From NCBI GenBank assembly GCA_964195995.1, contig CAXMQS010000036.1:31116-95115 (forward strand): 64,000 bases of DNA, given 5' to 3'. Of this stretch, positions 2,904 through 39,035 are shown in pieces. The notes under the pieces were generated by a model. It did not search any database. It saw nothing but the letters and a program-made list of their open reading frames with translations, and was not told the DNA's origin. The stretch comes from an uncultured Acidimicrobiia bacterium (GTDB lineage Bacteria; Actinomycetota; Acidimicrobiia; Spongiisociales; JAOTWH01). How positions within the stretch are numbered: position 1 is the first letter of the stretch; the number at the start of each line of letters is the position of its first letter. The translations under genes were made by a program, and so were the position numbers.

Positions 2904-2954
2904 GACCCCCTCCGACCTCGCTTAGCTCGGCCATCCTCCCCCTGAAGGGGGAGG
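2904..2954 (+). repeat. GC-rich double-hairpin repeat unit (copy A, type 1)
   Basis: gaccccctccgacc-tcgcttagctcgg-ccatcctccccctgaagggggagg. The 3' hairpin cctccccc-tgaa-gggggagg (2935-2954) abuts the ATG at 2955. Related copies occur at 16636, 21458(-), 34577 and 37948/38172. Confidence 0.7.
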
Positions 2955-4733
2955 ATGGGCTCCTTGCCTCCGTACTCTCATCAGTTCATGAAGGTCCTCG
3001 ACCCCTCCATCAGGCCCGGCCTGTCGCTGATTCGCACCACCCTCCTCGGGTATAGGTGGGAGGCGGCGCGGGCTATCAGCGGGGCGCTGCTGTGGATGGC
3101 CACCGTTGTGTCAATCCCGCTGATGACGAGACACATCATCGACCGGTCCATCCTGGCCGACCGCGGCTCCGTGCTCGGCGCGCTCGTTCTCGGGCTGTTG
3201 GGACTTGGCTTTCTGCAGGGAGTTGGCATTGGTGTCCGCAGGTACTTCGGCTTCCGCCTCTCGTATAGGGCCGAAGCCGATCTCCGCAATCACATGTTCG
3301 AGCAGGTGCAACGCCTCAGCTTTCGCTTCCATGACGAGGCCAGCACCGGCCAGCTGATGGCCAGGGCGTCGAGCGACCTATCGCAGATGAGGCTGGTCCT
3401 CGCCATGACGCCCATAACGGTCGCCAACATCGGCATGTTCTTGGCGGTGATCACCGTCTTTGTCGTGCTTGATCCTGTCTTGGGCCTTGTGGCCTCGCTC
3501 ACCGTTCCGATCCTCGGCTTGAGCGCCCGTGGCTACGCCAAGCGCGTCATCAAGCTGTCTTTTGACGTCCAGCAGCGCCTTGCCGACCTCAGCGAGGTGG
3601 TGGAGGAAGCTATCGGTGGCATTCAGGTCACGAAGTCACACGGCCAGGAGGACCAGGAGCAGGGCAAACTCGACCACGCCGCCGACCGCATCCTGGACGA
3701 CCAGATCGCGCTGGCCCGCATCCGATCGGTCTTCACCCCGCTGTTCGAGCTCATCCCATCCCTGGGGACCGTCGCGGTGCTGTGGCTCGGCGGCACCCGC
3801 GTTATCAACGGGCAGGTCAGCCTTGGCGAGTTCGTGGCCTTCACTCAATATCTCGGCGTCCTCATGTTCCCGTTGCGCATCACGGGCTGGTTCTTCGCCC
3901 AGGTTCCGAGAGCTGGTGCTGCAGGAACCCGCATCAGCCAGCTGTTCTCCGAAGCTCCAGATATCGCAGATCCCCGCCACCCTGAGACACTGCAGCCGGG
4001 TCCCGGCGAAGTCAGGCTGACCGGTGTCTCCTTCGCCTACCCCGACGGCACCGGCGTGCTGGACAACATCGATCTCACCATCCCTGGCGGGACATCGGTT
4101 GCCCTCGTCGGCGCCACCGGCGCCGGCAAGACCACGCTCTCCTTCCTCATCCCGCGCTTCTACGACGTCGACGAGGGGACCGTTGCCATAGATGGTGTCG
4201 ACGTCCGCCGAATTCAGCTGGCCGACCTGCGCCGAGAGGTCGCCCTGGTGTTCCAGGAGACGTTCCTGTTCTCAGCCTCGGTCAGGGACAACATCGCCTT
4301 CGGCCGTGCCGACGCCTCCGACGAACAGGTGCGCTTGGCGGCCCGCCTGGCGCAGGCCCACGATTTCATCATGGATCTGCCCGATGGATACGACACGGTC
4401 GTGGGCGAGCGCGGTCACTCGCTCTCTGGAGGACAGCGCCAGCGGGTGGCTCTGGCCCGCGCCGTCCTGCGCGACCCGCGGGTCCTCATCCTCGACGACG
4501 CCACCTCGTCTGTTGACGCCATCGTCGAAGCCGAGATGCTTACAGCTCTGGAGCGGGTGATGGCGGGCAGAACCACGGTCATCATCGCCCACCGCACCTC
4601 GACGCTGGCGCTGGTCGATCGGGTCGTCTTCCTTGACGAGAGCGGCATAGCGGCCGTTGGTCCTCACGCCGAGCTGGTCCGCACCGTTCCCAGGTACGCC
4701 GAGGTGCTGGCTCAGGAGGAGTCCCTCAGATGA
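2955..4733 (+). CDS. ABC transporter, fused permease/ATP-binding subunit (heterodimeric exporter, subunit 1)
   Basis: Six-TM N-terminal domain followed by an NBD with Walker A GATGAGKTT, signature LSGGQRQR and Walker B ILILDDATS. 4-nt overlap with the next gene. Confidence 0.85.
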   Translation: MGSLPPYSHQFMKVLDPSIRPGLSLIRTTLLGYRWEAARAISGALLWMATVVSIPLMTRHIIDRSILADRGSVLGALVLGLLGLGFLQGVGIGVRRYFGFRLSYRAEADLRNHMFEQVQRLSFRFHDEASTGQLMARASSDLSQMRLVLAMTPITVANIGMFLAVITVFVVLDPVLGLVASLTVPILGLSARGYAKRVIKLSFDVQQRLADLSEVVEEAIGGIQVTKSHGQEDQEQGKLDHAADRILDDQIALARIRSVFTPLFELIPSLGTVAVLWLGGTRVINGQVSLGEFVAFTQYLGVLMFPLRITGWFFAQVPRAGAAGTRISQLFSEAPDIADPRHPETLQPGPGEVRLTGVSFAYPDGTGVLDNIDLTIPGGTSVALVGATGAGKTTLSFLIPRFYDVDEGTVAIDGVDVRRIQLADLRREVALVFQETFLFSASVRDNIAFGRADASDEQVRLAARLAQAHDFIMDLPDGYDTVVGERGHSLSGGQRQRVALARAVLRDPRVLILDDATSSVDAIVEAEMLTALERVMAGRTTVIIAHRTSTLALVDRVVFLDESGIAAVGPHAELVRTVPRYAEVLAQEESLR

Positions 4734-6496
4734 CCACCGACACAGGGCGTCAGCGCACCGGGCGTTTGCTGCGTAGGGCTGTGATCCTGGATCGTTCGCT
4801 GGCGCGCCCAGCAGCCATCGCGCTGTCCGCCACCATCGTCGCCACCGTTGCTCGCCTCCTGGGGCCGCTGGTCGTCCGCTCTGGCATCGACGACGGCATC
4901 GCGAACAGCGACACCGGCGCCATCACTACCGCTGCGATCGCGTTCTCGGTGCTGCTGGTGGCGCAGTACCTGGCTCAGCGGTGGGCGCAGTTCGGTGTTT
5001 CATCATTGGGAGAGCTCTACCTGCGAATGTTGCGCAGCCGGGTCTTCCGCCACCTCATGGACCTCGATATGGCGTTCTACGGGCGCTCCAAGGCCGGCGT
5101 CCTGGTGAGCCGGATGACCAACGACATCGAGTCGCTCTCCGAGTTCGTTGAGGAGGGTGCCGTCAGCTTGGTCACCAACCTCCTGACCATCGCCGGCGTT
5201 GCCGTCGCCATGCTGCTCGTCGATGTTCCGGTCGCCCTCGCCGTTTTCGCCCTGATCGTGACCCTTGGACTCATCTCACGCATCTTTCAGAAGTTCGCCG
5301 CCCGCGCCTACCAGGAGGTCCGAGAGCAGATCGGCCGGGTGCTCGCCGGCCTCCAGGAGGGCATCACCGGAGTGAGGGTGGTGCAGGCCTTCACCCAAGA
5401 GCAGGAGCAGGCGGGGAGCTTCGGCGGGGTCAACGAGGCCTACTACGAGGCCAACATGCGGGCGGCTCGCCAGATCGCCTGGTACTTCCCGACCGTCGCC
5501 TTCTTCCGCACGGCCGGCGTCGGCGCGCTGCTTTTCGTAGGTGGAAGGCGGGTCATCTCGGGTGACATGTCCTTCGGGTCACTCGTTGCGATGTTGATGT
5601 ACCTGGACTGGTTCTTCCAACCGATCATCAATCTGTCAAACACCTACAACCAGATGCAGTCGGCGGCAGCAGCGCTGGCCAAGCTCTTCCGCTTGATGGA
5701 CACCGCTCCCACCGTCGTGGCCCCAGCCGACGGAGGGGTGCTGCTACCCAATCCCCTGAGCGGGGAGATCGTCTTCGAGGATGTGTCGTTCTCTTACGAC
5801 GGCGTAACGCCGGTCATCAACGGAGTCGACCTCGTGATCCCACCTGGGGAGAGGGTGTCTGTCGTCGGCGAGACCGGCGCCGGCAAGTCCACGTTGGCGC
5901 GTCTGGCACTCCGCTTCTACGATCCAACCGCGGGAACCGTCCGCCTCGACGGCGTTGATCTGACAGGCGTCAGTAACGCCGAGCGAGCCCGGCACGTCGT
6001 TCTGATTCCCCAGGAGGGCTTCCTTTTCAACGGGACGCTGCGCGACAACCTGCGCTACGCCCGAGCGGACGCCACCGATGAAGAGCTGTGGGATGTGTGC
6101 CGCACGATCGGCATCGACGACTGGGTCCACGATCTTCCCGAACGCATGGACACGCTGGTACGAGAGCGCGGCGGTCGGTTCTCGGCAGGGGAGCGACAGC
6201 TCGTGGCACTAGCCAGAGCGCTTCTCGCCGACCCCGAGGTCATCGTCCTCGACGAGGCCACCTCCAACCTCGACCCCGAGACCGAGGCCAGGGTCGAGCG
6301 AGCTCTAGCGACCCTGCTCGAGGGGCGGACCGCCATCGTCATCGCCCACCGCTTGCGCACCGCCGAGAGCTCCGACCGGGTGCTGATGGTCGGCGACGGT
6401 CGAGTGATCGCCGATGGCGCCCACGCCGACCTCGTGAACTCCAGCGTCGAGTACGGCGAGCTGGTGTCGGTGTGGGAGCGGGGGATCCTGCGATGA
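4730..6496 (+). CDS. ABC transporter, fused permease/ATP-binding subunit (heterodimeric exporter, subunit 2)
   Basis: TM domain plus NBD with GETGAGKST, FSAGERQ and VIVLDEATSNLD. Translationally coupled to the upstream paralogue. Confidence 0.85.
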   Translation: MTTDTGRQRTGRLLRRAVILDRSLARPAAIALSATIVATVARLLGPLVVRSGIDDGIANSDTGAITTAAIAFSVLLVAQYLAQRWAQFGVSSLGELYLRMLRSRVFRHLMDLDMAFYGRSKAGVLVSRMTNDIESLSEFVEEGAVSLVTNLLTIAGVAVAMLLVDVPVALAVFALIVTLGLISRIFQKFAARAYQEVREQIGRVLAGLQEGITGVRVVQAFTQEQEQAGSFGGVNEAYYEANMRAARQIAWYFPTVAFFRTAGVGALLFVGGRRVISGDMSFGSLVAMLMYLDWFFQPIINLSNTYNQMQSAAAALAKLFRLMDTAPTVVAPADGGVLLPNPLSGEIVFEDVSFSYDGVTPVINGVDLVIPPGERVSVVGETGAGKSTLARLALRFYDPTAGTVRLDGVDLTGVSNAERARHVVLIPQEGFLFNGTLRDNLRYARADATDEELWDVCRTIGIDDWVHDLPERMDTLVRERGGRFSAGERQLVALARALLADPEVIVLDEATSNLDPETEARVERALATLLEGRTAIVIAHRLRTAESSDRVLMVGDGRVIADGAHADLVNSSVEYGELVSVWERGILR

Positions 6497-9927: not shown

Positions 9928-9943
9928 TCGAACATGTGTTCGA
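9928..9943. promoter_or_regulatory. LexA (SOS) box of the Gram-positive/actinobacterial type upstream of imuA
   Basis: tcgaacatgtgttcga is a perfect match to TCGAAC-N4-GTTCGA, located about 35 nt before the imuA start. Confidence 0.7.
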
Positions 9944-9977
9944 TTAGTGTTGGGTGCCCTTCTGGAGGGCGGAACGC

Positions 9978-10604
9978 ATGGGATCCATGCCTGCTCTGGA
10001 CGGGCTCTTGGCGCTGGAGCCCGGCCGGGTCGTCGGCTTGACCGGTTCTGTTGGAGCCGGGATGACTCGCCTTGGGCTGTCGCTCATGGCCGAGGCCTCG
10101 CGGCGCGGTCCCGTCGCCTTCGTCGATGTGCGCGGCTGGTTGTGTCCTGTCTCCGCCTGGGAGAGCAGCATCGAGCCCGACCGGCTGGCCGTGGTGCGTT
10201 GCCCCGACCCCGGTCGCTGGCCCAAGGTGGTGGCGGCGTTGCTGGAGGGAATCCCCGCCGTCTACGCCGAGGTGCCAACAGGGGTCAGCGATGCCCTGTT
10301 GCGCCGGCTGGGGGCGTTGGCCCGCAATCGGCGCAGCTCCCTGCTGCTGCGACCGCTGCGGGGATCGCTGCCGTCTGGGTTGACCCATCTGCGCTTGGAG
10401 GGAAGGGGTATCGAGTGGGAAGGAACGGGCGACGGCCATGGCCGGCTGCGGAGCCGTCGTTTGCTTGTCGAGGCGTCTGGTAAGGCAACCGGGGGGATCC
10501 CTCGACTGATCGAGATCGAGGGAGGTGAATATGGAGCGGACGCTATGCGTGTGGTTCCCGGACTGGCCGCTGCGCCTGTTGGAGTCACCACCGCCGCCGG
10601 ATGA
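9978..10604 (+). CDS. imuA: ImuA (ImuA') mutasome accessory protein, RecA/SulA-like fold
   Basis: MGSMPALDGLLALEPGRVVGLTGSVGAGMTRLGLSLMAE… with a P-loop-like motif. It precedes imuB behind an SOS box. ATG at 9978 follows GGAGGG. Confidence 0.7.
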   Translation: MGSMPALDGLLALEPGRVVGLTGSVGAGMTRLGLSLMAEASRRGPVAFVDVRGWLCPVSAWESSIEPDRLAVVRCPDPGRWPKVVAALLEGIPAVYAEVPTGVSDALLRRLGALARNRRSSLLLRPLRGSLPSGLTHLRLEGRGIEWEGTGDGHGRLRSRRLLVEASGKATGGIPRLIEIEGGEYGADAMRVVPGLAAAPVGVTTAAG

Positions 10605-11997
10605 GCCCTACCAGGCGGTAGGGAGTGACAATCGGGTGGCAGCCGTCAACCCGGCTGCTGCTGCGGCTGGCGTTGCTCTTGGCATGTCCCGGCGCGAGGC
10701 GGAAGGGGTGTGCCCGACTGTGACGACCATCGTGCGTGACCTGGGGGCAGAGGCCGTGGCCTTCGAGGAGGTGGCGCGGGCGGTTGAAGATCTGGTGCCC
10801 CGTATCGAGCTTGCTGAGCCGGGGTTGCTGTTCGTACCAGTCACTGGAGCGGTCCGCTATTACGGGGGAGAGGAACCCCTTGTGGAGCGGCTATGCAAAG
10901 AGGTGGAGGGGGTGGCCGGCCCCGGAGCTCACCTCGGTCTGGCCGCCGGCCCCTTCGCCGCCCGTATGGCGGCGGACCACGCCACCGACGCCCCCTACAT
11001 CGTGGATGACGACGCCGCTTTCGTCGAGTCTCTTGACCTGTCGACGGTCGCCCCCGACGACCTGGTGGCCACTTTCCGCTGGCTGGGCATCAGCACGCTG
11101 GGGGAGCTGGCTCGCCTGCCGCGACCGGCCGTGCTGTCCCGCTTCGGTCCCGAGGGTTTGACCGCGCACCGGCTGGCATCGGGGGAGGACAGGGCGGCGA
11201 TGACCCGCCCCATCCCCGCCGACCTGGCCGTCGAGGAGCGCTTCTCCCCTCCGCTGGAGTCGCTGGAGCAGGCGGCTTTCGCGGCTCGGGCGCTGTCGGT
11301 GCGTCTGATCGAAGAGCTGGCGCGTTACGGGGCGATGCCGCACCGGGTCGAGGTAGAGGGGGAGTCGTCAACCGGGGTGGTGCGGAACCGGGTGTGGCGG
11401 AGTGCGGACCCATTCGGGGACACCGAGCTGGCGGAGCGGGTTCGCTGGCAGCTCGGATCATGGGTGGAGGGAGAGGGCATCGTCGGGGGGTTGGTGCGGC
11501 TGCGGTTAGCGCCTGCCGACCTCTCCGACGAGGGACGCCAGCTGGCGCTGCACGAGGACGCGGTGGCCCTGGCGGAGGCACAACGCTCGTTGCTGAGAGC
11601 GCAGTCGCTGGCTGGTCCCGACGCGGTGCTGGCTTCGGAGCCCCAGGGTGGCCGCGACCCCCAAGATCAGGTGCTGTGGCGCCGCTGGGGGGAGCAGGCC
11701 TCGCCGGTCCGCGACGCCGCAGCCCCGTGGCCGGGCCGGCTCCCGGGCCCGGCCCCGGCGTTGGTACCTCCGCAGCCACCTGCTCTCGATGTGGAGTGGG
11801 AGGCGGGGACGCCAACCAGGGTGCGGTTGGGCAGTCGCTGGGAGCCCATCCTGTCATGGGCAGGGCCGTGGCGACGGATGGGCAAGTGGTGGGAAGGGGA
11901 GGGTCACTGCGACCGCTACCAGCTGGTGACATCGGCCGGTGCCTTCCTCGTCGAGGTCGCGGCCGACGGTGCCCGGCTCACCGGCGTCTACGACTGA
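10531..11997 (+). CDS. imuB: ImuB, inactive Y-family polymerase-like mutasome scaffold
   Basis: N-terminus MERTLCVWFPDWPLRLLE… is typical of ImuB. ATG at 10531 follows GGAGG. It overlaps the imuA 3' end by about 74 nt. The proline-rich C-terminal half produces many antisense ORF artefacts. Confidence 0.75.
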   Translation: MERTLCVWFPDWPLRLLESPPPPDEPYQAVGSDNRVAAVNPAAAAAGVALGMSRREAEGVCPTVTTIVRDLGAEAVAFEEVARAVEDLVPRIELAEPGLLFVPVTGAVRYYGGEEPLVERLCKEVEGVAGPGAHLGLAAGPFAARMAADHATDAPYIVDDDAAFVESLDLSTVAPDDLVATFRWLGISTLGELARLPRPAVLSRFGPEGLTAHRLASGEDRAAMTRPIPADLAVEERFSPPLESLEQAAFAARALSVRLIEELARYGAMPHRVEVEGESSTGVVRNRVWRSADPFGDTELAERVRWQLGSWVEGEGIVGGLVRLRLAPADLSDEGRQLALHEDAVALAEAQRSLLRAQSLAGPDAVLASEPQGGRDPQDQVLWRRWGEQASPVRDAAAPWPGRLPGPAPALVPPQPPALDVEWEAGTPTRVRLGSRWEPILSWAGPWRRMGKWWEGEGHCDRYQLVTSAGAFLVEVAADGARLTGVYD

Positions 11998-16635: not shown

Positions 16636-16679
16636 TTGACCCCCTCCGGCCCTTCGGGCCACCTCCCACTGAACGGGGA
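16636..16679 (+). repeat. GC-rich double-hairpin repeat unit (copy B, type 2)
   Basis: gaccccctccggcccttcgggccacctcccactgaacggggagg, with hairpins ggccc-ttc-gggcc and cctccc-actgaac-ggggagg. Confidence 0.7.
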
Positions 16680-16753
16680 GGTTTGGCGGGGATTCTGCCT
16701 CTGGCGGAGTTTCCCCAATGCGATAGCGTTATGGCGTCATAGAGAGGGAGACC

Positions 16754-19727: not shown

Positions 19728-20719
19728 TCGCGGATCCAGGCGTCGCGGTTGGCATCGACGAAAGCTGGGTCGAAGAGTCGGACCTCGTCGGGGAATTCGG
19801 TGTAGGCGACGAAGTCGGCGGGGAGGGCGGCCTCGCTGTTAGCCGGGTACACGAACATGTTGAGGGGAATGTCTTGTTGGAACTCGATGCTAAGCATGAA
19901 GTCGATGAGTTGACGAGCCGCTGACTGGGCATCCGAACCCTCCAAGACGGCGGCGTATTCGATCTGCCGATAGCAACTGGCCCCCAGAACACCCGTCGGC
20001 GCCTGGTCGGTCGGCTCTGCGGCGAAGATGACCTCTGCCGGTGGCGAGGAGGCGTAGGAGACGACGAGGGGCCGATCTCCTCCGTACAGGCTGAAGTCTC
20101 CGCGGTAGGCCTCCTCCCATCCGGCGGCGACCAGCACGTCGTTGGCAACGAGACCGCGCCAGTAGTCCTGCCAGCCGTCGGCGCCGTACTCGTGGATGGT
20201 CGCCAGCAAGAACGCCAGGCCGGGCGACGAAGTGGCGGGGTCCTGGACCACGAGCAGGCCCGCGAACTCGGGGGAGAGCAAGTCGTCGAGGTTCTGCGGG
20301 AGGGCCCGACCGATTTCGCTGAGGGCTTCGAGGTCGTAGTTGATGCAGACGTCGCCGAAGTCGATTGGCGCCGCCCGCCCCTCAGTTCCAGCTTGGAGGT
20401 CGGCGGGCACGTGGCGGAGACCGTCGGGTTGGTAGCGGTCGAGGATGCCGGCGTCGAGAGCTCGGCCGAGGAGGGCGTTGTCGACGCCGAAGATGACATC
20501 TGCCAGCGGATTGTCCTTGGTGAGGATCGCCTGATTGACGACCGCACCGGCGTCCCCGGAGCGCAGAACCTTGACGGTGATGCCGGTCTCGGCGGTGAAA
20601 GCCGCCAGCACGTCGTCGGAGACCGCGAACGAATCATGAGTGAGCAGCGTCACCGTGTCCGCACTCGATCCACCACACGAGGCGCCGACGAGGATCACGA
20701 TGGCGGCGAGGCGCTTCAT
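19703..20719 (-). CDS. thiamine/iron-type periplasmic substrate-binding lipoprotein (ThiB/TbpA-like)
   Basis: Lipoprotein signal MKRLAAIVILVGASCGG. ThiB-like fold motifs. It follows the thiamine pyrophosphokinase gene behind a TPP riboswitch. Confidence 0.7.
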   Translation of the reverse strand: MKRLAAIVILVGASCGGSSADTVTLLTHDSFAVSDDVLAAFTAETGITVKVLRSGDAGAVVNQAILTKDNPLADVIFGVDNALLGRALDAGILDRYQPDGLRHVPADLQAGTEGRAAPIDFGDVCINYDLEALSEIGRALPQNLDDLLSPEFAGLLVVQDPATSSPGLAFLLATIHEYGADGWQDYWRGLVANDVLVAAGWEEAYRGDFSLYGGDRPLVVSYASSPPAEVIFAAEPTDQAPTGVLGASCYRQIEYAAVLEGSDAQSAARQLIDFMLSIEFQQDIPLNMFVYPANSEAALPADFVAYTEFPDEVRLFDPAFVDANRDAWIREWTEIVLR

Positions 20720-21339
20720 GTCCGGTGGAGGGCTAGGACACAGCCCGCGGTGACTGTCACCGTGGCAGTGACAGCGTCGAGCTCATTGCTGACCCCGCGG
20801 GTGGTGCCCGGCGCGAGCTCCTCGTTGTCGAGTCCCCACCTGAGGCCGGAGGTCGTGACTGTGGCAGGTTCCCCGATGGCGAGCAGAGTGACCTGGTCGC
20901 CGATGGCGCCGACGATCGTGTAGTCCTGGCGAACAACCGCAGCGTGGTAGGAGTCGACGAACCATTCGACGGATGCGGTCTGGTAGCGGTCGGAAGCCAG
21001 CAAGGCGGCATTTGCCAACAGATGGTCCAAGCGTCCGCCACCCCCGCCGACCACGACGATGGAGGAGGCGCCTCTCGTCATCGCGGCGTCTAATGCGAGC
21101 TCGAGGTCAGTGGCGTCTTTATCACTGGGGCGTCGGTCGATGGCGACGCCGGCTGCTTCGACTTGTGCAAGGAGACCTGGTTCGACGGAGTCCATGTCGC
21201 CGATGACGAGGTCGGGAGTGAGCCCGAGCGGCGCCGCCAGCGCCAGGCCGGAGTCCGCGGCGATGACGCCATCGGGGGAGGGGAGGGCCGGCAGTAGGCG
21301 CGGTGCCTCGCCTCCTGCCAAGACGATGATTGTGCCCAC
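20716..21339 (-). CDS. thiamine pyrophosphokinase
   Basis: VIGDMDS…RPSDKDATDLELAL motifs. The proposed start is GTG at 21339, 7 nt after GGAGGA. The ORF-track ATG at 21357 lies inside the conserved riboswitch core. Confidence 0.7.
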   Translation of the reverse strand: MGTIIVLAGGEAPRLLPALPSPDGVIAADSGLALAAPLGLTPDLVIGDMDSVEPGLLAQVEAAGVAIDRRPSDKDATDLELALDAAMTRGASSIVVVGGGGGRLDHLLANAALLASDRYQTASVEWFVDSYHAAVVRQDYTIVGAIGDQVTLLAIGEPATVTTSGLRWGLDNEELAPGTTRGVSNELDAVTATVTVTAGCVLALHRT

Positions 21340-21436
21340 AGGTTCCTCCGCTGGCATTACCCAGATCAGGTTCGGTGGGTCGGTGGCGCCTGTAAGGCCA
21401 CCCTCTCAGCCCGGCTGCCCGAGCTCCCCAGTGACG
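21338..21436 (-). ncRNA. TPP (thiamine pyrophosphate) riboswitch
   Basis: The reverse complement reads CACUGGGGAGCUCGGGCAGCCGGGCUGAGAGGGUGGCCUUACAGGCGCCACCGACCCACCGAACCUGAUCUGGGUAAUGCCAGCGGAGGAACC. This contains the GGGG(U/A)GC…GCUGAGA and ACCUGAUCUGGGUAAUGCCAGCG…GGA thi-box elements. Confidence 0.8.
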
Positions 21437-21457
21437 GCCCCAATGGTACAGCAGTTC

Positions 21458-21506
21458 GCCCCTCCAGGGCGAGGTGGCCGAGCACAGCGAGGTCTGAGGG
21501 GGTCGA
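21458..21506 (-). repeat. GC-rich double-hairpin repeat unit (copy E, type 1, minus orientation)
   Basis: The reverse complement reads gaccccctcagacctcgctgtgctcggccacctcgccctggagggg, matching copies A and C. It lies between the riboswitch and the AT-rich promoter region. Confidence 0.6.
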
Positions 21507-34422: not shown

Positions 34423-34505
34423 TGGGGAAAGATATCGAGCTTTGAGCCTTGGGCTATGGGCTTTGGGCGTAAGCCGTGAGTGGCGTGGCGAGAGGGTGGG
34501 ATTTG

Positions 34506-34620
34506 TGTCTCCCCCCATTGGGGGGAGTACCGGCGGAGCCGGGGAGGGGGGCTTCCTAGCGGGCGTGCTCGTTGCTGACACCCCTCCGCCTCGCTGCGCT
34601 CGGTCACCCTGGAGGGGGAG
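34506..34620 (+). repeat. composite GC-rich repeat (copy C): internal GGGGAG/CCGG module plus type-1 terminal unit
   Basis: tctcccccc-attg-gggggag hairpin, followed by cggcggagccggggaggggggcttcctagcgggcg (nearly identical to 38100-38134), followed by acccctccgcctcgctgcgctcggtcaccctggagggggagg. Confidence 0.65.
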
Positions 34621-34621
34621 G

Positions 34622-34637
34622 GCGAACATATGTTCGA
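34622..34637. promoter_or_regulatory. LexA (SOS) box upstream of dnaE2
   Basis: gcgaacatatgttcga (core CGAAC-N4-GTTCG), about 15 nt before the dnaE2 ATG and immediately after the repeat unit. Confidence 0.7.
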
Positions 34638-34652
34638 CTAGAGTGATTTCCC

Positions 34653-37600
34653 ATGTATGCCGAGTTGCACTGTCACACCAACTACTCCTTTCAGGACGGG
34701 GCCTCGTGGGCAGAGGAGCTGGTGCAGCGGGCGGTCGATCTGGAGTACACGGCCCTGGCCGTCACCGACCACGATGGCTTTCGGGGGGCGGTCCGCTTCC
34801 ATCAGGCGGCCACTGTCACCGGGTTGCCGGCGGTGTATGGCACCGAAATCAGCATGGCGGCGAACGCCAACGAAGACCAAGACAAAGACCCGATACCAGG
34901 GCCGGGGGAGGCGGAGATAGCCGAGCCGGAGAAGCGGCGCGGGCGGACGCATCCGATGCACGGGTCGAAGCCGACGGCGATGGCGGAGGCCGATCATCTC
35001 GTCCTGTTGGCCTCCTCTCCCCAGGGTTATGGAGCCATCAGCCACTTGGTGTCCAAGGCCCAGTTCCGGGGACGCAAGGATCGTCCCGTCTACGACTGGG
35101 GCGATGTCGCGGAGGCCGCGGCCATCGGTGAATTGGTGGCGTTGTCTGGGTGCCACCAAGGGGCCATGGCGCGGGCGGCACAGGCCGGAGACCTCGACGG
35201 CGCGCTGCGAGAGGGCTCTCGCCTCAGGGAGATCTTCGGGGGTCGCTTCTACGTCGAGTTGTGGCATCACGGGATGCCCGAGGACGACCCGCGCAACGAT
35301 CTCATGGCCGAGGCCGCCCGTCGTCTCAATGCTCCAACCATCGCCACCAACAACGCCCACTACCACGACCGGTCGCAGGCGGACCTCTCCGAGGTTCTGG
35401 CCGCCATCGGCGGCAGGCGCGACCTCGACGCCAACGATGGATACCGGCCTGCCTCAGATGAGCGTTACCTCAAGTCTCCCCAAGAGATGGAGCAACGCTT
35501 CGCTCGCTATCCGGGGGCGGTGCGAAGGGCAGGGCGACTTGGGGCCGATCTTGCCTTTGACCTGGCGCTGGTAGCACCGCGGCTTCCCGACTACGGACTC
35601 CCCGGGTCGTTCACCACCGAGTCCGAATACCTGCGACACCTCGTGTTCGAGGGAGCTCAGGAGGTCTACCCAGACGGCGCCGGTGGCGTGGAGTGGCGGG
35701 CCGAGCAACGGCTCAACCACGAGCTGAAGGTCATAGAAGAGCTCGAGTTCGGTGGCTACTTCCTCGTGGTGTGGGACATCGTGCAGTTCGCACGGTCCCG
35801 CGACATCTATTGCCAGATCCGGGGCTCCGGTGCCGACTCTGCGGTGTGTCGCTGTCTCGGACTGACGAGGGTCGATCCGATACGCCTCAACCTGCCGTTC
35901 GAGCGCTTCCTCTCAGAGGAGCGGGCCCGCCCTCCGGACATCGACGTCGACTTCGAGGCGGAGCGCCGCGAGGAGGTCATCCAGTACTGCTACCAGCGCT
36001 ATGGACGGGAGCGGGCGGCCATGGTTGCCAACGTCATCACCTATCGAGCGCGGTCCGTGCTCCAGGACGTCGGCAAGGCGTTCGGGCTCACCCAGGCTCA
36101 GGTGAGCGGCCTCACCCGCTACGTAGACACCCGCAAGCCGCAGCGCTTGGCCGAGGAGCTCGAGTTGCCGCCGGGGCTGACGACCGACCTCATCTATGAC
36201 ATGTGTGCCCGACTCGACGGCTTCCCGAGGCACCTCGGCATCCACTCCGGGGGGATGGTGATGGCGGATCGCCCGTTATGGGAGGTGGTCCCGTTGGAGT
36301 GGGGGCGCATGGAGGATCGGTCGGTGCTGCAGTGGGACAAGGACGACTGTGCTGCCATGGGTGTCGTCAAGTTCGACCTCCTCGCCCTTGGCATGCTCAA
36401 CGCCCTCCACCTTGCGGTCGACATGATCGGCGACGCCCACGGTGTCGCTGTCGATCTGGCGACCATCGACCAGGAGCCGGTGATCTACGACATGCTCACC
36501 AAGGCAGACACGGTTGGCCTCTTCCAGGTGGAGTCGCGGGCTCAGATGGCGACCTTGCCTCGCATGAAGCCGAAGGACTTCTACGACTTGGCCATCGAGG
36601 TTGCCCTCATTCGCCCAGGCCCGATCCAGGGGCACTCAGTCCATCCGTTCCTGCGAAGGCGCAATGGCGAGGAGAAGGTGAGCTACCCCCACCCCCTGGC
36701 CGAGCCCATTCTCCGCAAGACGCTGGGAGTCCCCGTGTTCCAGGAGCAGCTCATGGAACTGGCAAGGGTGTGCGCGGGATTCTCGCCGGGTCAGTCAGAT
36801 CGGTTGCGCTCGGCGATGACCCACAAGCGGTCGGACGAAGCCATGGCCAAGCTCGCAGACGAGGTGTACGACGGCATGGCCCGTAATGGGATCACCGGGT
36901 CCGCCGCAGACGAGATATGGGAGAAGCTGCAGGGGTTCGCCTCGTTCGGCTTCCCCGAGAGTCACTCGGTTTCGTTCGCCTACATCGTCTACGCCTCGGC
37001 CTGGCTCAAGTACCACTGGCCGACCGAGTTCCTGGCGGGGTTGCTCAACGCCCAGCCCATGGGCTTCTACAGCCCCAACACGCTGGCGCAGGACGCCATC
37101 CGCCATGGGGTGGTGGTTCTTGCCCCCGACATCAACACTGCCGAGTTCGACTGCACCATCGAGCACATCGATACCGACCCCAACGACATCGCCATCTACT
37201 ACGGACTGAGCTGGCGTCGGGGGAGAGGACCCACCGATGATCCCGTTCGTCCGGCAACCGCGGTGCGACTCGGCCTTCGCTACGTCCGCAACCTGGGGGA
37301 GGCCGAGATCGCCCGCATCGAGGCCGCCCGTCAGGTTGGCGGTCCCTTTTCGTCTGCCGAGGACCTGGCGCAGCGCACCGGCCTCGACGCCGGCGGTCTC
37401 GAGGGTCTGGCGGCAGCGGGTGCCCTCGGCTCGGTTGGCATGGGAAGGCGTGATGGGATCTGGGCAGCAGGGGCCCTTGCCGACCTCGGTCCGGGGCGGC
37501 TGGCCATCTCCGAGGGTGCCGTTGCCCCATCGCTTGGCGAAATGGAGCCGTATCAGGCTCACCAGGCCGACCTGTGGTCGACGGGGGTGTCGTCGACGCA

Positions 37601-37952
37601 CCCGGTCCACTTCGCCCGCCCCGTTCTCGCCGACCGGGGCTGCTTCACCGTTGCCGACGCCCTTGTGAAGAAGCGTCACGGCATCAGGGCCAAGGTCGGC
37701 GGCATCATCACCCACCGCCAGCGTCCCGGCACCGCCAAAGGCATTCGCTTTCTCAACCTCGAGGACGAGACCGGTCTCCTCAACGTCGTCGTGATGCCCC
37801 AGGTGTGGGACCAGAACTACGAGATCGCCCGCAAGGCAGTCGGGGTGATCATCGAAGGACGCCTCGAGTTCCGCGACGGCGTCACCAACCTGGTCGCCCA
37901 CCGTTTCTGGGAGTGGCCGGTAGATGGAGTGAAGAGCCGCGACTTCCGATAG
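34653..37952 (+). CDS. dnaE2: error-prone DNA polymerase III alpha subunit DnaE2 (ImuC)
   Basis: 1099 aa. PHP domain MYAELHCHTNYSFQDGAS, pol IIIalpha palm/fingers, and an OB domain at the C-terminus. SOS box upstream. Confidence 0.9.
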   Translation: MYAELHCHTNYSFQDGASWAEELVQRAVDLEYTALAVTDHDGFRGAVRFHQAATVTGLPAVYGTEISMAANANEDQDKDPIPGPGEAEIAEPEKRRGRTHPMHGSKPTAMAEADHLVLLASSPQGYGAISHLVSKAQFRGRKDRPVYDWGDVAEAAAIGELVALSGCHQGAMARAAQAGDLDGALREGSRLREIFGGRFYVELWHHGMPEDDPRNDLMAEAARRLNAPTIATNNAHYHDRSQADLSEVLAAIGGRRDLDANDGYRPASDERYLKSPQEMEQRFARYPGAVRRAGRLGADLAFDLALVAPRLPDYGLPGSFTTESEYLRHLVFEGAQEVYPDGAGGVEWRAEQRLNHELKVIEELEFGGYFLVVWDIVQFARSRDIYCQIRGSGADSAVCRCLGLTRVDPIRLNLPFERFLSEERARPPDIDVDFEAERREEVIQYCYQRYGRERAAMVANVITYRARSVLQDVGKAFGLTQAQVSGLTRYVDTRKPQRLAEELELPPGLTTDLIYDMCARLDGFPRHLGIHSGGMVMADRPLWEVVPLEWGRMEDRSVLQWDKDDCAAMGVVKFDLLALGMLNALHLAVDMIGDAHGVAVDLATIDQEPVIYDMLTKADTVGLFQVESRAQMATLPRMKPKDFYDLAIEVALIRPGPIQGHSVHPFLRRRNGEEKVSYPHPLAEPILRKTLGVPVFQEQLMELARVCAGFSPGQSDRLRSAMTHKRSDEAMAKLADEVYDGMARNGITGSAADEIWEKLQGFASFGFPESHSVSFAYIVYASAWLKYHWPTEFLAGLLNAQPMGFYSPNTLAQDAIRHGVVVLAPDINTAEFDCTIEHIDTDPNDIAIYYGLSWRRGRGPTDDPVRPATAVRLGLRYVRNLGEAEIARIEAARQVGGPFSSAEDLAQRTGLDAGGLEGLAAAGALGSVGMGRRDGIWAAGALADLGPGRLAISEGAVAPSLGEMEPYQAHQADLWSTGVSSTHPVHFARPVLADRGCFTVADALVKKRHGIRAKVGGIITHRQRPGTAKGIRFLNLEDETGLLNVVVMPQVWDQNYEIARKAVGVIIEGRLEFRDGVTNLVAHRFWEWPVDGVKSRDFR

Positions 37953-38214
37953 AGAATCCTCCCCCTTCAGGGGGAGGTGGCCCGAAGGGTCGGAGGGGGT
38001 CGAGGCGTGGTTCACCCGTCATCGAGATCGTGGCGAGGCTCGCTTGGGGGAGTACCGGCGAAGCCGGGGAGGAGACCCTCTCCGTTTCTCCTCCCATAGG
38101 GGGGAGAAACGGCGGAGCCGGGGAGGGGGGCTTCCTCGCGGGCGCGTGGTTTTGGTACATCGTGATAGCTGTAAACAGGAAGCCCCCTCCGACCGTCTCG
38201 GCCACCTCCCCCTA
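37948..38214. repeat. MITE-like composite element (copy D) with ~44-bp terminal inverted repeats made of the double-hairpin unit
   Basis: The left arm cctcccccttcagggggaggtggcccgaagggtcggagggggtc (37948-37992) is the inverted complement of the right arm gccccctccgaccgtctcggccacctccccctaggggggagg (38172-38214). The internal part carries gggggagtaccggcgaagccggggagg and cggcggagccggggaggggggcttcctcgcgggcg modules shared with copy C. Confidence 0.65.
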
Positions 38215-38258
38215 GGGGGGAGGAGACGTCAAGCTGCCCTAAGAGGGGAGCGCTTCCT

Positions 38259-39035
38259 TTACGGTGCACGCACGCCGAGCGCTGTTGCCAGCACCACCGA
38301 TAGGCCGAGGACAACCTGCTGGGCCCCGAGCGCCGCTACGACCGGTGGACGGCGGCGAACCTGGACGATGTGCACGACCGCCAACGCGATGAGGGCGATC
38401 ATCCCGGTGAGAGGGACGGCGTCCAACGTGTATCCGACGGTCCCGGCCATTGCCGCCACGAACTGGGCGCCGTCGGAGGTAAGGACCTTGTGAGGTTGCT
38501 CCTTCATTCGCCGAAGCTGTACGCGCACGAATGGAATCGCGGCAACGGCCCTGGCGCCGGCGACGCACCACAGGCCGGCGGCGACCAGAGCACCGCCACC
38601 TCCTGCCAGGGCGATGGCGGCGGCCACCGCGGCAACGCCGACGGAGCCGGCCAGCTCGGGCACCAGCCGCCTGCTGCGGGACCGGATGTCGTACCACGAC
38701 TCGATAGCCACCAGCGGCGCCGCGATCACAAGGGGCCACCAGAACGCCTGCTCAGCGGTGACAACGGCAAGCATCAGCAGCACTGCTGCGATTGCCAGCT
38801 CGACACCCGCCACCCGTTCCGCCAGTTGCGTGCGGCCTAGCCGTCGCTTCCGCAGGCGATCGACCAAGGCGATTCTGAGCGGCGTGCGAGCCACGAACGC
38901 CGTGAGAGCGACACCCGCCAGCGCCAGGCCAGCCGCACTGGGCTCGACCAACAGCCCCAACACGGCAGGCTCGAGAGTGAGGCTCCAACCCCCGTGCTCA
39001 GTGGGGACGGCAACCGATCGGACGGAAACCACCAT
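38259..39035 (-). CDS. YwiC-like polytopic membrane protein
   Basis: 258 aa with about 8 hydrophobic helices. The N-terminus HGGWSLTLEP… is typical of YwiC-like proteins. Confidence 0.5.
   Translation of the reverse strand: MVVSVRSVAVPTEHGGWSLTLEPAVLGLLVEPSAAGLALAGVALTAFVARTPLRIALVDRLRKRRLGRTQLAERVAGVELAIAAVLLMLAVVTAEQAFWWPLVIAAPLVAIESWYDIRSRSRRLVPELAGSVGVAAVAAAIALAGGGGALVAAGLWCVAGARAVAAIPFVRVQLRRMKEQPHKVLTSDGAQFVAAMAGTVGYTLDAVPLTGMIALIALAVVHIVQVRRRPPVVAALGAQQVVLGLSVVLATALGVRAP

Follow-up and report, generated by a model that had tools for sequence, protein, structure and literature searches.

Hairpin-unit repeats flanking dnaE2 in an Acidimicrobiia bacterium and a dispersed family associated with DUF559 nuclease genes

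The imuA'-imuB/dnaE2 cassette of SOS mutagenesis has been described as 'contiguous or split' (PMC3919608), and the present analysis concerns short GC-rich repeats that lie on both sides of dnaE2 in a 64,000-nucleotide stretch of DNA (64 kb; hereafter the window) from an uncultured Acidimicrobiia bacterium (assembly GCA_964195995.1, contig CAXMQS010000036.1). Among described repeats, miniature inverted-repeat transposable elements (MITEs), such as Correia/NEMIS of Neisseria and Nezha of cyanobacteria, resemble them in size (about 110-270 nt), in having inverted ends, strong hairpin potential and no open reading frame (ORF), and also in their many dispersed intergenic copies, their presence or absence between relatives and the existence of longer relatives with a gene between the same ends. 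Repetitive extragenic palindromes (REP), bacterial interspersed mosaic elements (BIME) and REP doublets (REPINs) with their REP-associated tyrosine transposases (RAYT), known from E. coli, Pseudomonas and Stenotrophomonas (SMAG), share with them short imperfect intergenic palindromes, inverted doublets and mosaic clusters; they too are often found at the 3' ends of genes and are probably recognised as hairpins.

Here we show that the repeats flanking dnaE2 are insertions of a dispersed family of hairpin units, and that units of the same architecture are associated, in several phyla, with a small cassette of which they form the inverted ends and whose sole gene encodes a DUF559 endonuclease (Vsr-like, PD-(D/E)XK fold). 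Taken as a whole, we give a probability of about 0.72 to the reading that the flanking repeats are ORF-less, MITE-like members of this palindromic family which inserted later, that dnaE2 did not move, and that the family is tied to DUF559 cassettes.

Repeat blocks on either side of dnaE2

A preliminary description of this locus had reported related GC-rich repeats on both sides of dnaE2, and the sequence comparison bears this out. A direct repeat family (D2) links 34505-34565 with 38084-38144 over 61 nt at 90% identity, with a third, diverged copy at 38030-38090 (62% identity), and the longest perfect match between the flanking copies is 27 nt (34531-34557 = 38110-38136). The core motif GGGGGAGnnnCGGCGRAGCCGGGGAGG occurs three times in the 64 kb, each time beside dnaE2, where shuffled sequences lead one to expect 0.00 matches. 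For the 3' block, terminal inverted repeats of about 44 bp had been claimed; the computed arms (37962-37999 and 38183-38220) are 38 nt long and 82% complementary, which is close enough, and more inverted repeats lie inside the block.

The building block of these repeats is a unit of ~43 nt. It consists of a first hairpin with a C-rich and a G-rich arm (CTCCCCCC-loop-GGGGGGAG), a spacer of 1-3 nt, a second, shorter-stemmed hairpin capped by a C-GNA-G triloop, and a G-rich tail (GGAGGGGGG), which is almost a second copy of the G-rich arm GGGGGGAG. Two flavours are present in the window, a B-type with hairpin 2 CCGGC-GRA-GCCGG and an A-type with GGCCC-GAA-GGGYC. One element is made of two units in inverted orientation, and units also stack, nest or occur singly. 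A covariance model (R1), built from an alignment (A7) of 48 diverse units, gives 10 matches at E<0.01 in the window. The features at dnaE2 are as follows.

34509-34551 (+): 5' element, left unit, B-type, CTCCCCCC-ATT-GGGGGGAG-TA-CCGGC(GGA)GCCGG-GGAGGGGGG; R1 59.9 bits, E 7e-15
34552-34580 (+): 5' element, 29-nt linker (CTTCCTAGCGGGCG...), its first ~14 nt common to the 3' copy (family D2)
34581-34621 (-): 5' element, right unit, reversed and degenerate, A'-type; weak R1 match, 10.5 bits, E 0.38
34623-34636 (+): LexA box of dnaE2, perfect Cheo-type, CGAACATATGTTCG, 1-2 nt from the end of the 5' repeat element
34639-34644 (+): TAGAGT, possible -10 hexamer, 8 nt before the ATG; found by sequence inspection, conserved in locus L116
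34653-37952 (+): dnaE2, error-prone DNA polymerase, 1099 aa; Pfam PHP, DNA_pol3_alpha, finger, HHH_6 and OB domains
37958-37999 (+): 3' block, outer left unit, A-type, CCTCCCCC-TTCA-GGGGGAGG-T-GGCCC(GAA)GGGTC-GGAGGGGG; R1 52.1 bits, inverted arm I1
38039-38074 (+): 3' block, truncated B-type unit without the left arm of hairpin 1; R1 26 bits, model positions 6-42
38088-38130 (+): 3' block, inner B-type unit, direct-repeat partner of 34509-34551 at 90% identity; R1 48.8 bits
38131-38182 (+): 3' block, linker with an internal inverted repeat GGGGGCTTCCT / AGGAAGCCCCC (11 nt, 100% complementary)
38183-38224 (-): 3' block, right A-type unit, reversed; R1 31.6 bits

The left unit of the 5' element forms two hairpins in the DNA fold and is identical in a sister metagenome-assembled genome (MAG). 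The left and right halves of this element also pair with each other in the fold, as an inverted pair of ~113 nt without an ORF (34509-34621), and this pair adjoins the LexA box, as had been stated. In the 3' block the reversed unit at 38183-38224 closes both an inner pair (38088-38224) and an outer pair (37958-38224); the inner element (B unit, linker and reversed A unit) and the truncated B unit are thus nested within the outer A/reversed-A pair. The region of the inner element, 38084-38226, folds as DNA at -43.9 kcal/mol (z = -6.1), while single units fold into two adjacent hairpins. No ORF with a family match and no transposase was found inside the flanking blocks (113 and 267 nt); with their inverted ends and no ORF they are built like MITEs, and a MITE-like nature had been proposed for them. 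Four terminator-like hairpins are predicted in the 3' block against 0.2 expected, and the block sits between convergent genes.

The repeats fill most of the space on either side of the polymerase gene. Upstream, a divergent small membrane-protein ORF ends near 34424 and leaves a spacer of 228 bp; downstream, a convergent YwiC-like gene (38259-39035) leaves 306 bp. Between the 5' element and the small membrane ORF, at 34436-34470, lies a short imperfect tandem motif (GAGCTTTGAGCCTTGGGCTATGGGCTTTGGGC); it has a variant form in the sister MAG, where the stretch ahead of the unit is 29 nt shorter. From their sequence, the runs of G and C in the units may have G-quadruplex or i-motif potential.

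The repeats are not confined to the flanks of dnaE2: model R1 finds the family at five intergenic sites of the window, one of them weak. The three sites away from dnaE2 are the following.

2906-2954 (-): solo unit downstream of pnp; R1 29.7 bits, fold z = -3.4
16640-16680 (-): solo unit downstream of a YbaK/tRNA_edit gene; R1 42.5 bits, E 5e-10
21455-21502 (+): degenerate unit directly 5' of a thiamine pyrophosphate (TPP) riboswitch; weak R1 match, 10.5 bits, E 0.4, with a BLAST match to sister-MAG repeat copies

By our own estimate, two adjacent occupied spacers among about 60 would arise by chance with P about 0.3, and the pairing around dnaE2 is not significant. The TPP riboswitch itself (21325-21440, minus strand, 57.5 bits) precedes a gene for thiamine pyrophosphokinase (20716-21357). 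In pnp (233-2785; PNPase of 850 aa), 27-nt periodic repeats at 2499-2691 encode a G/R/D-rich tail (GGRDR...), an unusual C-terminal extension.

The unit family in other genomes and its DUF559 genes

An exact scan with the core pattern, taking one genome per species, returned at least 115 loci. These belong to Acidimicrobiia, Acidobacteriota and Caulobacteraceae/Brevundimonas, often with several per MAG, and single cases among the matches listed come from Dormibacterota, Elusimicrobia, Ignavibacteria, Armatimonadota and others; the AT-rich genomes of L046 and L104 also carry the GC-rich unit. Among the 115 loci listed, a dnaE2 gene or LexA box lies near a unit at one site only, the orthologous site of the sister MAG, and a general link of the units with SOS genes was dropped.

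The second hairpin varies in sequence and keeps its pairing, with stems such as CGGC/GCCG, GGCCC/GGGCC, ACCAC/GTGGT, CGCC/GGCG, GTCGCC/GGCGAC and more. Across the 48 units 92.9% of cells are paired and 64 are double-change cells; the covariation score is 0.67 versus 0.16 in shuffles (0/500 reach 0.67), and slid registers score far lower. A set of 93 distinct middle segments shows many stems, with the loops C-GAA-G (29), C-GGA-G (12), C-GTA-G (4) and C-GCA-G (2), and the closing C-G pair and the GNA triloop are nearly invariant across the distinct variants. Since mini-hairpins of the d(GCGAAGC) type, with C-GNA-G, are exceptionally stable in DNA, this suggests that the unit owes its importance to its structure as DNA.

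By a crude gene call, 17/77 units fell 'inside' an ORF where 56% were expected, and these cases are probably stop-to-stop overshoot. The genes flanking the units are convergent in 22 cases, tandem in 33 and divergent in 5. In the tandem spacers the unit strand shows no bias (18 vs 15), which disfavours a strand-specific RNA function. Searches of Rfam at gathering and at permissive thresholds gave only chance matches to miRNA-type hairpins far below threshold, and no paper containing the exact core sequences was found in the full-text literature. A CRISPR-like array was dropped as an explanation, as the 50-nt tandem arrays of L036 repeat the 'spacer' too, and so was an origin from tRNA or integron attC sites, whose architecture is dissimilar. 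In many Brevundimonas species (L012, L015, L021, L030, L040, L041, L050, L069, L085, L108) a single B unit stands at one orthologous site beside 2-oxoacid dehydrogenase genes, and stable inheritance across the genus is therefore possible.

The recurrent gene partner of the units is DUF559. At L036 a 125-aa ORF between two unit arrays belongs to this family (PF04480), and a tblastn and profile search of the 115 listed loci located DUF559 ORFs in 10 of them, each at most about 330 nt away from a unit, with none elsewhere in the 769 kb; their Pfam PF04480 matches have E values of 1e-24 to 1e-34. Oppositely oriented units bracket the ORF in L101, L023, L036, L064 and L004, the inverted ends are ~75 nt long and near-perfect in L006, and in L104, one of the AT-rich genomes, five tandem units precede the DUF559 gene and reversed units follow it. 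An unbiased clustering of 1554 ORFs near units (listed loci, up to 8 kb) left DUF559 as the sole neighbour to recur in different lineages; two clusters of neighbouring ORFs were larger, and both represent one orthologous Brevundimonas site.

The association was also approached from the protein side, with 45 DUF559 loci from metagenomes that were fetched by protein similarity alone (4-sequence alignment). Of the close homologues (at least 50% identity), about 20/22 have units in their flanks. Among the distant ones (L142-L163, 37-48% identity), flanking inverted repeats are present in 16 of the 20 testable cases (z 4.6-70), and these repeats have the same architecture in another sequence, for example CCTTCTCCCC-loop-GGGAGAAGG-TG-hairpin(C-GNA-G)-GGATGAGGGG or CCCTCCCCCC-loop-GGGGGAGGG-TTAGGGTGGGGGG. 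In a neighbour-joining tree the clades of the DUF559 proteins match the type of the flanking unit. DUF559 proteins have been reported as enriched among predicted inversion targets, with an odds ratio of 14 (PMC9881135), as would fit genes with inverted repeats on either side.

The DUF559 profile matches PDB 3hrl (E 1e-31), and in the alignment from the related loci, the window having none, the residues D53, E64, D66 and H70 are invariant (D, E-x-D, H). A Vsr-like fold family has been defined that groups VSR, DUF559 and DUF2726 (PMC3424549), and DUF559 is also grouped with I-Bth0305I, a homing endonuclease of the Vsr-like 'EDxHD' kind (PMC3239194). In the literature on DUF559, COG2852, PF04480 and Vsr-like nucleases we found no paper linking DUF559 to repeats.

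Two of these loci have features of their own. At L023 (725-800) the tail GGAGGGGGG of the upstream unit stops 5 nt short of the ATG of the DUF559 gene, where a Shine-Dalgarno sequence would stand, and translation of the nuclease gene may be initiated from within the unit. At L036 (3306-4529, minus strand, and 4593-5620), in another Acidimicrobiia MAG, the DUF559 gene and its arrays, including 50-nt tandem arrays, lie directly upstream of a divergent gene for a dinB-like Y-family polymerase; no LexA box was seen at this locus, and a second translesion polymerase beside the family is probably a coincidence.

Pairs without an ORF far outnumber those with one. By analogy with MITEs, the ORF-less copies could be non-autonomous derivatives of DUF559 cassettes, on which the nuclease would act in trans by nicking or cutting hairpins that are extruded or single-stranded; the GNA loop contains a sheared G·A mismatch, which a mismatch-nuclease fold could plausibly grip. 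If the break is then repaired from another copy, by copying or by gene conversion, the units would spread and become homogenised. We put forward only tentatively, and with the odds somewhat against it, that the units may be recognition or processing sites of DUF559 nucleases and that 'DUF559 + inverted hairpin ends' may be an undescribed class of nuclease-driven selfish elements present in many phyla with lineage-specific unit types. If so, much of the GC-rich palindromic sequence between genes would come from derivatives without an ORF, and the palindromes at the LexA operator of dnaE2 would be among them.

Insertion history at dnaE2 and the split SOS cassette

A split cassette is the rule in Actinobacteria, as in M. 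tuberculosis (Rv3370c vs Rv3394c/Rv3395c). The second half of the cassette in the window is the following.

9929-11997 (+): LexA box (9929-9942), putative imuA' (9954-10604, 216 aa) and imuB (10525-11997, IMS domain), from Pfam, the LexA box scan and R1

The two perfect LexA boxes of the window are this one, just before putative imuA', and the one before dnaE2. An exact look-up of the window DnaE2 protein returned no record, its homologues carry the name 'error-prone DNA polymerase', and the window contains a DnaE2-type Pol III alpha homologue, a Y-family ImuB, and a LexA box before both transcription units; it is a split, LexA-controlled imuA'-imuB / dnaE2 cassette, in which imuB lies about 22.7 kb upstream of dnaE2. 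Model R1 detects no repeat units within this half (9929-11997).

The closest genome is the Acidimicrobiia MAG BS1bin.31, the sister MAG referred to above, whose dnaE2 is 98.6% identical in DNA sequence and in which both insertions are present. One of its contigs (L027) holds dnaE2 and the 3' block; the LexA box, the 5' element and the genes upstream of them are on another (L114), and each of the two contigs ends within the repeats. The window and the MAG have identical 5' elements. The 3' block differs by a swap and a duplication of whole modules, and since it has been reshuffled module by module, the repeat arrays rearrange quickly. The same MAG has units at further loci (L063, L095).

Four more distant relatives (L116-L119, DnaE2 identity 73-87%) show the locus without the repeats. 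In 86 kb of these loci R1 has no match, and in 4/4 no gene with an IMS domain (imuB) lies within 10 kb of dnaE2. At L116, with DnaE2 87% identical, the gene order is identical to that of the window: ABC transporter, solute-binding protein, sigma-70, hypothetical, small membrane ORF, dnaE2, YwiC-like, glyoxalase. The spacers of its dnaE2 measure 95 bp (5') and 28 bp (3') and are free of units, and the LexA box, TAGAGT and ATG context are conserved; the box is likewise conserved in L118 and L119 and present in L117. Because L116 has the same neighbours and short, unit-free spacers, the repeats were inserted into pre-existing intergenic regions. Judged from the sequences compared, the elements entered both spacers after the split from a relative that keeps the empty sites, and dnaE2 did not move. 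As four repeat-free relatives also have no imuB near dnaE2, the split between dnaE2 and imuA'-imuB is independent of the repeats, and the separation is older than they are.

At L117 (DnaE2 identity 82%) the dnaE2 gene itself has an in-frame insertion of ~69 aa at 2760-2990, in a variable loop of the PHP domain, and the ORF stays open. This insertion resembles two degenerate hairpin units in a pair (…CTCCCGCTTGCGGGAGTAC… and …CCCCCTTCGACCCGGCCCTTCGGGCCGGCCCACTTCCCCCGCTGCCGCGGGGGAAGAAC), R1 gives it no score, and the gene call starts after it (998 aa).

The local consequences can be outlined from the sequence. No Shine-Dalgarno sequence precedes the ATG of dnaE2, which together with TAGAGT so close to the ATG suggests a leaderless mRNA with TAGAGT as the -10 element; a sigma-70 consensus scan called no promoter upstream of dnaE2 either in the window or in L116. 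The 5' element takes the place of the L116 sequence ...GCATTAGAAT before the LexA box, and if TAGAGT is the -10, the -35 position would now fall within GGGAGG of the repeat, so that an effect of the element on dnaE2 regulation is possible. The 3' block would supply stable hairpins between the convergent genes. The direct B copies, which recall the recombination hotspot raised as a possibility in the preliminary description, could allow a rare deletion of dnaE2, the 27-nt identity being marginal for homologous recombination; dnaE2 is kept in both repeat-carrying genomes, the window and BS1bin.31.

Alternative readings and known systems

The preliminary description had proposed a past mobilisation of the dnaE2 cassette, that is, a composite transposon-like event that carried dnaE2 and its LexA box away from imuA-imuB and left the repeat blocks as remains. 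Related modules that point the same way on either side of the gene, and the fact that all three core-motif copies adjoin it, could be taken this way, but L116 has the same flanking genes on both sides and no repeats, the flanking elements are without a transposase, and units stand at three further sites of the window. Nor do the repeats explain the ~23-kb separation from imuA-imuB, as had been suggested, since in the four relatives that lack them no imuB lies within 10 kb of dnaE2 and the split form was already known (PMC3919608). What the preliminary description itself had named as contrary evidence is in essence what the comparison shows: the units are found widely, in intergenic regions, and they are not concentrated at dnaE2 or at SOS boxes. 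Such a move of the polymerase gene is therefore very improbable. A chance resemblance between low-complexity spacers, which the 64% G+C of the window and the dominance of G and C runs in the units might bring to mind, is refuted by the core matches where shuffles expect 0.00, by 61 nt at 90% identity, by R1 E values down to 7e-15 and by the 27-mer being exact in at least 115 loci of other genomes.

Two further readings concern the nature of the family. The units might be REPINs of the REP/BIME type, kept by a RAYT (Y1 HUH transposase) encoded elsewhere, with the DUF559 link secondary; short intergenic imperfect palindromes, inverted pairs, mosaics and hairpins that look suited to single-stranded DNA all agree with this. 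However, no recurrent neighbour other than DUF559 emerged from the 1554 ORFs near units in the 115 listed loci of up to 8 kb, the units start with (T)TTCTCCCCCC and a GTAG/GTGG head is absent in 127 aligned copies, and the same core is found across phyla, whereas REP sequences are normally lineage-specific, all of which makes a RAYT-driven family unlikely. A slightly better, still low, chance is given to host-selected structural elements, i.e., non-mobile terminators, stabilisers of mRNA 3' ends or protein-binding sites, whose position at dnaE2 would be regulatory. Convergent spacers are enriched in units and divergent ones poor in them, the 3' block has its excess of terminator-like hairpins, and the G-rich tail at L023 is placed like a Shine-Dalgarno sequence; on the other hand, there is no strand bias in tandem contexts and no Rfam match, T-runs are missing from most hairpins, presence and absence differ among close relatives with blocks reshuffled by module, and a copy-like insertion stands in frame within the L117 dnaE2. 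A structural role is compatible with mobile repeats that were co-opted secondarily.

The reading that we prefer, later insertions of a mobile family tied to DUF559 cassettes, has several points to contend with. No target-site duplication or exact insertion boundary is definable, as the L116 spacers are too diverged, and no obvious duplication appears in the flanks of aligned copies. The 64-kb window has no DUF559 gene, and we know of no DUF559 activity on hairpin DNA. The association may run the other way, with a cassette that prefers to land in existing repeats and merely targets them, or a RAYT-like enzyme elsewhere may be the agent. At L112 (6123-6888, minus strand; a Rhizomicrobium MAG) the DUF559 ORF lies in pieces around a unit at 6429-6458, and units can therefore also land inside the nuclease gene. 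From phylum to phylum the 27-nt core is better conserved than the DUF559 proteins beside it (37-59% identical), which a simple model of one protein that recognises its own ends does not explain. The core motif has 0 matches in 2.9 million viral contigs, the 3' inner element has no match to plasmids, and the 48 units of the covariation count were chosen by eye for diversity from 103.

For dnaE2 the result is deflationary, in that the polymerase gene was not mobilised and its split cassette is the ordinary actinobacterial arrangement. The wider interest lies with DUF559, a very common bacterial domain of unknown function. In unrelated phyla its genes regularly stand here between hairpin units in inverted orientation, and many copies of the units have no ORF. 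Should the nuclease act on these hairpins, this would provide a function for DUF559, and a nuclease-based, transposase-free route to MITE/REP-like repeats would follow. It would also account for the G/P/R-rich pseudo-peptides annotated at gene ends in GC-rich genomes.

Compared with the split imuA'-imuB / dnaE2 cassettes of Actinobacteria, the one in the window is alike in having its own LexA box for each half, ~23 kb apart; the cassette itself is ordinary, and what is particular to the window lineage is the insertion of repeats beside the dnaE2 operator. The in-frame insertion in the L117 dnaE2 recalls the Rickettsia palindromic elements, which are also palindromic repeats in frame within genes, but their sequence is unrelated, they have no associated nuclease gene, and the window copies are all intergenic. 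In contrast to REP, BIME and REPIN sequences, the units have no GTAG head and no Y1 transposase was seen beside them, while a near-identical core in several phyla and a DUF559 gene set them apart. MITEs differ in that the gene between the ends is here a DUF559/Vsr-like nuclease, with no known transposase activity, and in that the ends are modular two-hairpin units that also occur solo, in tandem or nested, with no target-site duplication found. Vsr-fold nucleases are proven drivers of selfish-gene mobility. With I-Bth0305I (EDxHD; PMC3239194) and 3hrl the DUF559 ORF shares the Vsr-like fold and the conserved acidic and histidine residues, but its cassette, known here from sequence alone, is free-standing, without an intron or intein, the protein is without the N-terminal NUMOD DNA-binding region, and the cassette has hairpin inverted repeats and many ORF-less copies. 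Set against all of these systems, the family is a variant of MITE/REP-like repeats in which the relatives that carry a gene encode a DUF559 nuclease instead of a transposase.

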